Positions 52,655-60,405 of a stretch of 64,000 bases of DNA are shown piece after piece. Source of the DNA: Rhodobacterales bacterium (lineage in GTDB: Bacteria > Pseudomonadota > Alphaproteobacteria > Rhodobacterales > Rhodobacteraceae); NCBI GenBank assembly GCA_045046705.1, contig JASFZB010000007.1, forward strand, positions 438 through 64,437, written 5' to 3'. Below the pieces are notes generated by a model. That model was not told the DNA's origin, searched no databases, and was given only the letters and a program-made list of their open reading frames with translations. The position numbers and the translations under genes are program-made. How positions within the stretch are numbered: the first letter of the stretch is position 1; each line of letters starts with the position of its first letter.

Positions 52655-52759
52655 CCCAGTCCGTGTCCCTTTCATCATACCCCGCCACTTAATCACAGAT
52701 TTCAGCATTTTACAGGGGGGGTCTTGGCAAAATCATTCCGACAAGGTAACGCTGCCGCC

Positions 52760-53527
52760 ATGCCCAGATATGCTTTGAAAATCGAATACCACGGCAAGCC
52801 CTTTGCGGGTTGGCAAAAACAGCGGGACGCGCCTTCTGTGCAGCAAGCTATCGAGCAGGCACTGCAAAAGCTGGAACCGGATTGTGTAAGCGTTCAGGGC
52901 GCCGGGCGCACCGATGCGGGGGTTCACGCATTGGCCCAAGTTGCCCATGTGGATCTAAAGTCCGACTGGCAAGCGTTTCGCCTGTCTGAAGCCCTGAATT
53001 ACCATCTTAAACCAAACCCGATTGCCATATTACAAGCCGCCCGCGTCGCGGATGATTTTCACGCCCGTTTTGACGCAACCAAGCGCACATACACATTCCG
53101 CCTGTTATCACGCCGCGCCCCTGCCACCCATGATGCAGGCCTTGTCTGGCAAATCAACCACCCGCTTGATGTGGCCGACATGCAGCAAGCCGCCAATCAT
53201 CTGCTGGGAAAACACGACTTCACCACTTTCCGGTCCACCATCTGTCAGGCCAAATCCCCGATCAAGACGCTTGATGCGCTGGACATCACCGAACACGCCC
53301 GCCCCCACGGCACCGAATACCGGTTTATCATCCGCGCCCGCAGCTTTTTGCACAATCAGGTGCGCAGCTTTGTCGGCACATTGGCCCGCGTCGGTACAGG
53401 CCGTTGGGCACCCATCAAGGTCAAACACGCACTTGAGGCCACCGACCGCGCCGCCTGCGGCCCGGTTTGCCCCCCGCACGGGTTGTATCTGGCAAAGGTC
53501 ACCTACCCCGACGACCCGTTCAAATAA
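52760..53527 (+). CDS. truA: tRNA pseudouridine(38-40) synthase
   Basis: [26 protein letters not shown] and PPHGLYL motifs. Confidence 0.96.
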
Positions 53528-53573
53528 CCGGCGATCAATTCTGGGTAAGCACCCATCCCAAAGCCGAAATTTG

Positions 53574-53894
53574 CTGTATCATCGGCACCATGCACCCTCA
53601 GGGAAACACCTGTCCAATCCAACGGAAGTGCCCGATGAAACCGCTTCTGACAGCCCTGACAATCGTCTTTCTGCTGCCCCTTTATAGGCCACATCTCGTA
53701 GACTGGCGGCACATGCTATTCTTGTTCATCTCGAACAGTTGATTGGGCGATAAAGCGCGTTACACAAGAAGAAGAAATCGCGGCTTGTTAACACAAATGA
53801 AAACTTTGTCGGCATAGATGCCGGGAAACGCGAACTGGTTGTTGCGATTGTCGGCGTTAACCATATTTGGACGGAGGACAACACCGCCAAAGGC
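53574..53894 (+). mobile_element. Decayed IS110-family element: structured non-coding end plus frameshifted, truncated transposase start
   Basis: Frame at 53796 reads NENFVGIDAGKRELVVAIVGVNHIWTEDNTAKG (IS110 RuvC-like GIDxxK start). The ATG at 53797 is one base out of frame. The upstream 220 bp contain nested inverted repeats. Confidence 0.6.
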
Positions 53895-53915
53895 AATATC
53901 AACGCAAAAGCCGGT

Positions 53916-53938
53916 ACATTGGTGATCCGCACCAATGT
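53916..53938. terminator. Hairpin ACATTGGTG-ATCCG-CACCAATGT, probable MATE terminator
   Basis: Perfect 9-bp stem 6 bp beyond the MATE stop. Confidence 0.55.
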
Positions 53939-53944
53939 CACTTT

Positions 53945-55294
53945 TCATGGGCTTATCCAGTTTCGCGTCCAGAACCGGTAGTTCAACAATATCGCCGCCA
54001 GACCCAAACCGCCAACCAAACCCGCCCAAATACCGACCGCACCATAGCCCCAGACAAAACCGAACATATAGCCTGCGGGCAGGCCGACAATCCAGTAGCT
54101 GATGAAGGCAAGGATAAGCGGCACACGCGCATCCTGCACACCGCGCAACAGCCCCAACGCCATCACTTGCAAACTGTCAGCCACCTGAAACAGTGCCGCC
54201 ATTGCCATCAGGCTGACACCGATCGCCAGAATTTGATCCCTAGCGGCCTCATTACGGTCTAAAAACACCCCGATCAGCGTGTCGGGGATGCTCAGGAACA
54301 CCACAACGATGATGCTGGCAAAGCTCAAGGACATTGCCCCTGCCACCAACCCGCCACGGCGCAGACCGCCCGCGTCCTTGCGCCCCACCGCACGCCCGGC
54401 GCGTACCGTTGCTGCATTCGACAGCCCGACATGCACCATAAAAGTCACCGCCCCCCATTGCAGCGCAATACCGTGGGCCGCCAGTTGCAAGGTGCCGACC
54501 CAGCCCATCATAATCGCGGTGGCACTGAACAGGGCGGTTTCCGCCAGATTTGTCAACCCGATAGGCCAGCCAAGGCGAAACACCTGCCCGAAAGCCGCCG
54601 AATCGAACCGCCAGATACGCTGGAACAACGCGTGCTGCGGCATCTTTCGCACAGCATAAACCGCGAGCAGCGGAAAACTAAGGGTTTGCATCAAGGCCGA
54701 GGCCGTTGCCGCGCCGCGAATACCCATCTCCGGCGCCCCCCAATGGCCGAAAATCAGGGCATAATTCAGCACCCCGTTCAACACCGCCCCCGCCAACGTC
54801 ACCCACAAAACCACTTGTGCGCGCTCCAGAGCTGCCAAATAGCTTTTCAACACCATAATAAACAGGCTCGGCAGCATACCAAATGCGGCGATACGCAGAT
54901 AGTTCTGCGCAAACCCTGCCACGACAGCGTCTTGCCCCAAAGCCAGCAACCACGCTTTCGACCACCACATAAACGGCCATGCCACAATCATATAAAACGC
55001 CGAGGCCCAAAGCCCCATGCGTGTCACCCGGCGCACTTGCGCGTCATCGCCCGCACTGGCCGCATTGGCTACCATCGGCATCACCGCAAATGCAAATCCC
55101 GCGCCAACAATAAAAAGTAGAAAAAACATCGAAGACGCCAGAACAATTGCGGCCAATTCTTCGACCCCGTACCAGCCCATCATAACCGTATCGGTCATCT
55201 GAATGGCCATTTGCGCAATGTGGCTGCCGATCAACGGCAGCCCCAATATCAGCACCGCTTTAGCGTGCCCGGTATATGTTAGTGGATGGTTCAT
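53945..55294 (-). CDS. MATE-family efflux transporter (NorM-like)
   Basis: LGLPLIGSHIAQ, TDTVMMGW, RLGWPIG, AAHGIALQ and LRGVQDARVP motifs. Confidence 0.92.
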   Translation of the reverse strand: MNHPLTYTGHAKAVLILGLPLIGSHIAQMAIQMTDTVMMGWYGVEELAAIVLASSMFFLLFIVGAGFAFAVMPMVANAASAGDDAQVRRVTRMGLWASAFYMIVAWPFMWWSKAWLLALGQDAVVAGFAQNYLRIAAFGMLPSLFIMVLKSYLAALERAQVVLWVTLAGAVLNGVLNYALIFGHWGAPEMGIRGAATASALMQTLSFPLLAVYAVRKMPQHALFQRIWRFDSAAFGQVFRLGWPIGLTNLAETALFSATAIMMGWVGTLQLAAHGIALQWGAVTFMVHVGLSNAATVRAGRAVGRKDAGGLRRGGLVAGAMSLSFASIIVVVFLSIPDTLIGVFLDRNEAARDQILAIGVSLMAMAALFQVADSLQVMALGLLRGVQDARVPLILAFISYWIVGLPAGYMFGFVWGYGAVGIWAGLVGGLGLAAILLNYRFWTRNWISP

Positions 55295-59898: not shown

Positions 59899-60351
59899 AT
59901 GGCAGAGACCCCAAGTGCAGTGTTGTTTTGTTGTGATCACAACTCGATCCGTTCACCGATGGCCGAAGCCTTGATGAAAAACCTGGTAGGCACCCAGATA
60001 TTCGTGCAATCCGCAGGCGTTAAAAGCGATCACGACATCGACGGGTTTGCCGTTGCCGTTTGTCAGGAACTGGGCGTGGAGCTGTCCAAGCATACTGTCC
60101 GCTCATTCGAGGATCTTGAGGATTGGGGCGATCATCTGGCCAGCTTCGATCTGATAGTTGCCCTGTCCCCCACATCCCACATGCGGATCACCGAATTGAC
60201 AAAAAATCACGCGGTGGACGTGGAATACTGGAATACTGCGGATCCCACAGAAACCGGCCGCACCCGCGACGAAAAGCTGGCCTCATACCGCGCCGTGCGC
60301 GATGCCATCATCGCCAACATCAAACGGCGGTTTATGCAAACGGTTGACTAG
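59899..60351 (+). CDS. Low-molecular-weight phosphatase / ArsC-like protein
   Basis: VLFCCDHNSIRSPMAE P-loop (CX5R); DPT motif. Confidence 0.85.
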   Translation: MAETPSAVLFCCDHNSIRSPMAEALMKNLVGTQIFVQSAGVKSDHDIDGFAVAVCQELGVELSKHTVRSFEDLEDWGDHLASFDLIVALSPTSHMRITELTKNHAVDVEYWNTADPTETGRTRDEKLASYRAVRDAIIANIKRRFMQTVD

Positions 60352-60405
60352 GGTCAGGACCTATTAATCCTGCACCGTAGAGGCTGCATTTCAAATTTGT
60401 ATAAA

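Follow-up and report, generated by a model that had tools for sequence, protein, structure and literature searches.

We analyzed the 417-bp spacer between truA, the gene of a tRNA pseudouridine synthase, and a MATE efflux transporter gene in a Rhodobacterales bacterium (assembly GCA_045046705.1, contig JASFZB010000007.1, positions 438 to 64,437). This whole stretch of 64,000 nucleotides (nt), with a G+C content of 53.7%, is called the window below. The spacer can be read as a triple scar, consisting of the stub of a metallo-β-lactamase (MBL)-fold pseudogene, an internal fragment of an IS110 insertion sequence (IS) and the stub of a proline-racemase-family gene. An initial annotation had proposed that the spacer holds an IS110 fossil including part of the bridge-RNA non-coding end, and this was borne out by a profile match (nhmmer E = 4.6e-10). 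The bases ~53687-53884 are very probably what is left of an IS110-group insertion sequence, namely an internal, non-functional piece that has lost both ends.

The first lead was a set of weak matches of 53660-53900, obtained by permissive blastn, in Paracoccus and Gemmobacter (plasmids). The match in Paracoccus sp. Arc7-R13 lies ~40 nt upstream of an annotated IS110-family transposase (L082), for which Pfam gives DEDD_Tnp_IS110 at 9e-19 and Transposase_20 at 7.7e-19, and the window and Paracoccus alignments have TCTCGAACAGTTGATTG (17/17 nt), GGCAC and the TCGGCATAGATG codons in common. A DNA profile was built from 14 plasmid copies of this family, covering the left end (LE) and the first ~45 codons of the recombinase. 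With 128 kb searched, it gave a single match in the window, at 53687-53833 (+) and model positions 92-236; the match is collinear over 147 nt, lies on the correct strand and runs across the boundary between LE and coding sequence. In addition, R1, a covariance model of the whole left end of the family, matched only the donor-binding loop (DBL), at 53719-53776 (+) and model positions 123-182 (15.2 bits, E ~1e-3 over the window), and found nothing above chance on the minus strand of the window.

These matches bear directly on the alternative that the resemblance to IS110 is accidental, the 200 bases being either ordinary intergenic DNA or what diverged from the MBL-fold or proline-racemase genes. 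In its favor, each flank can be shown to be a remnant of a host pseudogene, the frame gave no significant result at the protein level, and NTAKG, a peptide similar to the IS110 NTxEG motif, for the most part reads the VDIAFGG codons of the proline-racemase gene in antisense; the same holds for the longer NTAKGNINAK, which had been read as IS110 frame. Coincidence is nevertheless already refuted by the collinear profile match and is further contradicted by the independent match of the covariance model on the DBL, by the position of the first blastn lead just upstream of an annotated IS110 transposase, and by a contig in run X1 (see below) that carries the match on into the family-invariant CCTTGTGG. 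Moreover, the MBL-fold and proline-racemase proteins gave no collinear tblastn match in 53690-53880, so that further remains of either gene are ruled out for the central 200 nt. We regard a coincidental resemblance as highly improbable.

Several results weigh against the assignment to IS110. The nearest sampled family member is only ~67% identical over ~155 nt in pairwise alignment, which points to a parent element from an unsampled sister clade. The peptide translated after repair of the frame has no Pfam hit at E <= 10, and a family protein hidden Markov model run against the six-frame translation of the window matched neither the fossil nor an intact recombinase. When the peptide was compared with plasmids by tblastn, three matches were obtained, all at the N-termini of IS110-family or transposase genes, with E values of 0.2-9 that make them suggestive only. 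No similarity is detectable for 53834-53879, which we assign to the IS fragment on the grounds of continuity and register. Preservation is better for the basal stem of the DBL and for the left donor guide (LDG) than for the rest of the fossil, which could reflect sequence constraint or chance. Finally, the absence of transcription and of function in the fossil is inferred.

Because the translation is not significantly IS110-like, the assignment rests on the DNA-level similarity of the LE and the first codons. The N-terminal peptide of the fossil, FVGIDAGKRELVVAI, differs from the IIGIDVSRDWLDIH of the family, and a search of 5.8 billion proteins with the 40-residue peptide returned no candidate. 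The N-terminal RuvC-like DEDD domain (PF01548) was undetected in the fragment, in which at most ~35 of its ~150 residues are left; the upstream region does match an IS110 LE, and the IS110 origin therefore stands. The C-terminal domain with the catalytic serine (PF02371) is absent, since coding stops at about codon 35, and was not found elsewhere in the window. The other copies that the initial annotation had suggested looking for were not found in the window, where self-comparison gave no second copy of the spacer or of the peptide. Rfam searches of the window at gathering and permissive thresholds gave nothing relevant; as Rfam 15 is also blind to the intact LE of L082 (2350-2650), where the best match was sX15 at E = 0.09 on the wrong strand, its negatives for IS110 left ends are uninformative. 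A literature search for the family yielded only an unrelated IS1111-group element of Paracoccus, ISPmar4.

The intact relatives (14 plasmid and 80 metagenome copies, about 95) are ~1.18 kb long and common on Rhodobacterales plasmids, with an LE of ~186 nt and a right end (RE) that reaches only ~17 nt past the stop codon. They encode a recombinase with the Pfam domains DEDD_Tnp_IS110 and Transposase_20. Comparison of the occupied sites with the uninterrupted IS5-family end of L082 (ATCCTGACC CT AG) allowed us to read the insertion as ...TCCTGACC-CT-[TCTGTATC ... GATACAGTTG-CT]-AG, which makes CT the core and IS5-family termini the target. The family members (L082-L094, L095-L174) nearly always sit at a tip of an ISPso2-like IS5-family element, which may lie in either orientation.

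For the structure of the non-coding end, 58 non-redundant left ends were aligned (alignment A4). RNAalifold gave a 15-bp 5′ hairpin (columns 28-63), a target-binding loop (TBL) with a basal stem at 66-74/123-130 and a distal hairpin at 85-89/107-111, and a DBL with a basal stem at 132-148/193-205 and a distal hairpin at 166-171/180-186. Compensatory changes were found in 22 of the 48 pairs of this consensus, TBL helices 2 and 3 being among those supported by covariation; 97.4% of the cells pair, versus 37-49% with slid partners, and none of 500 shuffles reached the observed values. The LE encodes the predicted bridge RNA of the family, in the same orientation as the recombinase gene.

The guides could be read from the same alignment. 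The left target guide (LTG), TCTGACCCT, has the same sequence as the left target with the core (TCCTGACC followed by CT) and changes together with the flank in L124 (CGGAACCT), L153 (TGGAGCCT), L169 (CGACCCT) and one further copy (CGGACCCT), while the GAC and GAG subfamilies mostly match GAC and GAG targets, respectively. The LDG, ACAGTTG, is identical to the tip of the right end. The core CT together with the left-end tip TCTG is complementary to the right donor guide (RDG), CAGAAG, which tracks this tip, with CATAAG next to TATG in L171, L173 and L174 and CGGAAG next to TCCG in L169. The basal stem of the DBL pairs CTCTCTTC with GAAGAGAG and covers the ribosome-binding site (RBS) of the recombinase gene. 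The RE-core-LE joint reads TTGCTT, 17 nt, TAnnCT, with T19, A20 and T24 (near-)invariant, a consensus that suggests a sigma-70-type junction promoter in the excised circle. An extra hairpin of ~45 nt interrupts the 3′ strand of the DBL in L084, L123 and L168, immediately ahead of the RBS.

Mapping of the fossil onto this anatomy (Table 1) showed that LE positions 1-91 are missing, and with them the left tip, the -10 box, the 5′ hairpin, the 5′ strand of the TBL and the LTG. In the TBL, 0/8 basal pairs are possible, as no 5′ letters are left, and 1/5 distal-hairpin pairs can form. The conserved word CTCGAACAGTTGATTG singled out in the initial annotation proved to be the LDG strand of the DBL. 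The structured end described there was not recovered: the IS-derived fragment folds like shuffled sequences (z = +0.44 on the plus strand and +1.19 on the minus strand) and has no detectable structure. The DBL fold is absent from the minimum free energy (MFE) structure of the fossil segment, unlike that of L082.

In the coding part, the native start is lost, the ATG of the family aligning to GCG at 53780-53782, and there is a net +1 frameshift ahead of the GID codons. From there on, GIDAGK...NT is in register with G11 (53811) to N34 (53880-53882) and T35 of the family, with no indels between G11 and N34. The frame NFVGIDAGKRELVVAIVGVNHIWTEDNTAKG at 53802-53894 (+) was seen as described, with an ATG at 53797 that is one base out of frame. 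Restoring a missing A does not recreate the native start, however, because the family ATG aligns 17 nt upstream and 53797 corresponds to family codons 6-7 (CAT GG). A truncation after ~33 codons was about right, given the register of N34.

The right junction lies in codon 34/35, where the IS (CCN AAC ACN in the relatives) meets the antisense of the proline-racemase gene (..CACCGCCAAAGG) at a microhomology of 3-5 nt, CAC/AACAC. The truncation had been placed at a terminator hairpin of the MATE gene; it is instead a junction with the proline-racemase pseudogene, and the hairpin is made of coding sequence of that gene. The left junction falls in the loop of the TBL distal hairpin and differs from strain to strain. 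As neither junction is at an IS terminus, the piece was presumably not put here by transposition in its present form and would have been left by illegitimate deletions. The family termini TCTGTATC... and ...GATACAGTTG with the core CT, to which its donor guides would bind, are not present at the fragment, which starts at LE ~92 and ends inside the gene, and a scan of 53450-54000 found no promoter-like site.

Table 1. Features mapped in and next to the truA-MATE spacer (window coordinates; RTG, right target guide)
Feature	Position	Strand	Evidence and remarks
truA (tRNA pseudouridine synthase)	52724-53527	+	Pfam PseudoU_synth_1, E = 1.2e-43; left neighbour
Host truA-MBL intergenic region	53528-53634	+	Aligns with the same region of L004-L006 (alignment A1, 70% mean column identity)
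Inverted repeat TCATCGGCAC / GTGCCCGATGA	53579-53588 / 53628-53638	+	Encloses CAGG/CCTG; host DNA, outside the IS
MBL-fold gene remnant, first ~15-17 codons (MKPLLTALTIVFLLP...)	53635-53685	+	Gene intact in relatives
Left junction zone (AGGCCACA), host DNA / IS fragment	53686-53693		Related copy in X1 matches from 53686; X2 variant matches to 53693
IS110-derived part	~53687-53884	+	nhmmer to 53833, then in-register continuity; ~195 bases
3′ ~95 nt of the IS110 LE (positions ~92-186), 3′ part of the bridge RNA gene	53687-53779	+	nhmmer; alignment to the 58 sequences of A4
RTG strand of the TBL, TCTCGTAGACT	53694-53704	+	A4 column mapping; CTAG/TTAG of the family is GTAG here
TBL basal stem, 3′ strand, GGCGGCAC	53705-53712	+	A4 column mapping; 5′ partner deleted
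Degraded DBL	53715-53779	+	Covariance model R1; A4 column mapping
DBL basal stem	53715-53727 with 53767-53779	+	7/11 pairs kept
LDG strand	53728-53744	+	ACAGTTG intact at 53735-53741
DBL distal hairpin remnant	53745-53760	+	1/6 pairs kept
RDG/RBS-like AAGAAGAAG	~53766-53774	+	RDG altered: CAAGAA vs CAGAAG of the family
Remnant of recombinase codons 1 to ~35	53780-53884	+	nhmmer to 53833; family consensus A3; register count
Proline-racemase-family gene remnant	53882-53944	-	blastn and tblastn to relatives; internal deletions
Perfect 9-bp hairpin ACATTGGTG/CACCAATGT	53916-53938		Terminator-like (terminator scan); from proline-racemase codons TSVRITNV
MATE efflux transporter gene	53945-55294	-	Pfam MatE, E = 2.9e-49; right neighbour

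The guide function attributed to the spacer in the initial annotation fared less well than the IS110 origin. The guide was described as divergent to the recombinase and as bridge- or seekRNA-like; it is co-directional (+), as in all IS110-group elements, in agreement with the empty minus-strand search, and it is of the LE-encoded bridge-RNA type of the IS110 group. An orphan guide that records a target specificity is not what is found, as the LTG, the promoter and both IS termini have been deleted; with the LTG gone, the fossil cannot record a target specificity.

The proposed action in trans needs more consideration. The retained half of the bridge RNA (RTG strand and DBL) might be transcribed, for example by read-through from truA, and act together with the recombinase of a related intact IS110 at another place in the genome, either as a spare or decoy donor-binding module or by promoting rearrangements. 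In vitro, IS621 recombination does proceed with the TBL and DBL supplied as separate RNAs (PMC11208158); in the window, truA is oriented toward the fragment, and the sole terminator-like hairpin is found downstream of the fragment. Among the features that survive are the LDG word ACAGTTG and seven of the 11 basal-stem pairs, and a closer and more complete relative of the fossil is found in run X1. The DBL distal hairpin, however, retains a single pair out of six, and in IS621 this stem-loop contacts the recombinase and matters for synapsis (PMC11208158). In addition, the RDG is altered, the DBL is not formed in the MFE fold, the z-scores are positive, no promoter was found, and the fragment is missing from the X2 strain and hence not conserved. 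We consider such a half-guide very unlikely. In a more specific version, the surviving DBL half would sit in the 3′ untranslated region of truA and be bound by an active related IS110 recombinase in the same genome, as a trans decoy or spare DBL, that is, a domesticated half bridge RNA; this is extremely unlikely, and if true would mean that a half bridge RNA modulates transposition or IS-mediated rearrangement. Four points make a role in trans unlikely: the destruction of the distal hairpin, the lack of a promoter, the absence of the fragment from a related strain and the null fold statistics. The fossil most likely has no activity and would at most be carried passively in truA read-through transcripts.

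Public sequencing reads support the view that the locus is dynamic. Run X1 contains the window's own contig, as well as a 1755-nt contig (depth 65) that is ~90% identical to 53686-53753. This contig runs upstream into ...CCAGCCTTGTGG..., which is the family-invariant end of the LTG strand together with the distal stem, and into an intact-looking TBL 5′ strand (...GCCTTGTGG...), and the match extends into the family-invariant CCTTGTGG; judging from this contig, the closer, more complete relative is present in the X1 sample. The same run contains the truA contig of a sister organism, at the same depth, which ends in ...ATTTAG followed by GGTCAGGACCC, an IS5-type terminal repeat directly after truA. 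In run X2, the strain is ~98% identical to the window up to 53693 and then diverges, with no sequence of at least 80% similarity and zero depth over 53703-54012. In this lineage, the spacer between truA and MATE appears to be a hot spot of rearrangement.

The flanks of the fragment could be traced to two host genes. By similarity of the MATE protein, the window derives from an Amylibacter/Neptunicoccus-like member of the Rhodobacterales, the best relatives being 74-85% identical in amino acids, and truA orthologs are syntenic in L002 and L004-L006. In L002, L004, L005 and L006, a gene of ~345 codons of the proline-racemase family follows the MATE gene on the same strand (Pfam Pro_racemase, E = 4.6e-120 for the L002 protein), and between this gene and truA, L004-L006 carry a convergent gene of the MBL fold (the L005 protein has Pfam Lactamase_B). 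Both genes have been lost from the window, and a stub of each is kept. The MBL stub was found by tblastn with the MBL proteins of L006, L005 and L004 (RKCPMKPLLTALTIVFLLP vs RKHPMKPLFAALSIALAIP, E = 1.4e-4). The proline-racemase stub keeps the ATG of its gene, which overlaps the TGA of the MATE gene, and its codons correspond to ~K133-V141 and V161-G167 of the relatives (tblastn KVTLVRITNVPAFA.. and VDIAFGG). At the nucleotide level, blastn aligned CGTTGATATTGCCTTTGGCGGTG with the VDIAFGG codons of L005 (23/23 identical) and AAAGTGACATTGGTGCGGATCACCAATGT with the K-A-T-S-V-R-I-T-N-V codons of L006 (25/29).

The inverted repeat at 53579/53628, which had been noted upstream of the frame as part of the IS end, is a real hairpin (-19.6 kcal/mol, z = -2.2; 6/200 shuffles in the comparison of folds with shuffled sequence), yet it belongs to host DNA, as it aligns with L004-L006. 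Its right arm consists of the RBS and ATG (53635-53637) of the MBL remnant, and its left arm (53579-53588) is inside an insertion of ~10 nt that is unique to the window in comparison with L004-L006. The word GATGATACAG, also taken for an IS end, is host intergenic DNA, and CTGTATC at 53574-53580, a candidate for the left tip of the IS, was rejected on alignment with the host intergenic DNA of three relatives. Similarly, the minus-strand words that had been listed as an IS110 end are present but belong to several objects, 53528-~53685 being host DNA and 53882-53944 proline-racemase sequence. A near-repeat, CGGCAC(C)ATGC, occurs at 53583-53593, within the insertion specific to the window from which the left arm of the host hairpin is formed, and at 53706-53715, within the 3′ strand of the TBL basal stem, which derives from the IS. 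A chance match of 8-10 letters or the trace of a templated repair could account for it.

The terminator-like hairpin at 53916-53938 has an imperfect counterpart in the relatives, ACATCGGTG..TACCAATGT, with two stem mismatches and located within the intact gene. In the window, the hairpin is flanked by T-runs on both strands, and this piece of pseudogene may have been co-opted as a bidirectional terminator.

On the minus strand, a chimeric open reading frame (ORF) of 62 codons (MKSDIGADHQCTGFCVDIAFGGVV...) extends from 53947 to 53760, starting at the old proline-racemase ATG and running antisense through the IS110 fragment. It is probably meaningless, although translational coupling to MATE could occur. 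That this ORF is the functional element, the region having been kept for a small protein, has the faintest of chances: the frame is open and its inherited start is coupled to MATE by an ATGA overlap, but it joins frame-shifted pieces of a pseudogene to antisense IS DNA, no homolog was found, the terminator-like hairpin lies inside it, and it is missing from the X2 strain (zero depth 53703-54012).

Taken as a non-functional internal fragment of an IS110-group element, the spacer suggests the following history. An IS110 element would first have sat between or within the MBL-fold and proline-racemase genes, possibly at the end of an IS5-type element, its preferred target. Illegitimate deletions at short microhomologies would then have removed everything except the internal piece and the two gene stubs.

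The intact relatives closely resemble IS621 (Durrant et al. 2024, PMC11208160; Hiraizumi et al. 2024, PMC11208158). In both, a recombinase with the DEDD_Tnp_IS110 and Transposase_20 domains goes with a long LE and a co-directional non-coding RNA composed of a 5′ hairpin, a TBL and a DBL; the LTG corresponds to the top strand of the left target plus core, the RTG is complementary to the right target, the LDG corresponds to the right-end tip, and the RDG is complementary to the left-end tip. This agrees with the description of IS621, in which the top strand is reproduced by the LTG and LDG and complemented by the RTG and RDG, and the promoter is rebuilt across the RE-LE joint (PMC11208160). A CT core and the lack of inverted repeats or long duplications are also shared, as is, going by the family consensus, an RE-LE joint promoter. 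The family differs from IS621 in its clade, which is found on Rhodobacterales plasmids and in marine and freshwater metagenomes, and in its target, an IS5-family terminus as opposed to a REP-like (repetitive extragenic palindrome-like) site. The window differs from IS621 in holding only LE ~92-186 and ~35 codons, without termini, LTG, promoter or recombinase.

The annotated IS110 elements of Paracoccus, Salipiger, Pseudosulfitobacter and others (for example, NZ_CP034817.1 18471-19633, WP_127900009.1) are collinear with the fossil DNA over a stretch that begins at the TBL distal hairpin, takes in the DBL and the RBS and extends to the GID codons. These elements and the fossil have the family-invariant words GGCAC, TCTCGAACAGTTGA and TCGGCATAGATG in common, whereas overall identity is only ~67%. 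Elements of the IS1111 group, with their seekRNAs (Siddiquee et al. 2024), have the same recombinase superfamily and an RNA guide from the non-coding end. The two groups are distinguished by the location of the RNA, in the LE for IS110 and in the RE for IS1111 (PMC11208160). In IS1111, the RNA lies in the right end downstream of the gene and there are sub-terminal inverted repeats of 7-17 bp, whereas the RNA region described here lies upstream of the gene, in the left end.

A second truncated copy was identified on a plasmid of Sinorhizobium fredii (NZ_CP035038.1; L175 2022-2184). Like the fossil in the window, it is a solo truncated IS110 left end, with no recombinase within 2 kb; it covers LE positions 2-163 (nhmmer E = 2e-33) and is located at an IS5-type end. 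It differs in keeping the true left terminus, the -10 box of the promoter, the 5′ hairpin, the whole TBL and part of the DBL, whereas the window keeps the opposite half and no terminus. Nine Sinorhizobium records were matched, and the two listed cover the left end only. The S. fredii fossils are better orphan-guide candidates than the fragment in the window.

The value of the fossil is one of correct annotation, as it is an ordinary genomic scar that marks a former IS where two host genes were lost. The by-product of the analysis, a well-sampled Rhodobacterales IS110 subfamily, is more useful than the fossil itself. The bridge RNA of this subfamily, its CT core, its junction promoter and its natural target can be read directly from covariation, and naturally reprogrammed guides (L124, L153, L169) are among its copies; as a whole it offers a ready comparative data set for bridge-RNA rules. 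The subfamily belongs to an established kind, with no new mechanism.

Finally, a sequence related to the target of this family was observed elsewhere in the window, at 60348-60369, where CTAG followed by GGGTCAGGACCTATTAAT lies at the stop codon of the gene at 59899-60351. No IS5 transposase was found near 60348-60369, and the sequence may be a solo inverted repeat or the end of a miniature inverted-repeat transposable element. It agrees at 17/19 positions with the terminal repeat of IS5-family elements found next to IS110 copies (L081), and its minus strand reads TCCTGACC-CT-AG, the exact unoccupied consensus target of the IS110 family.

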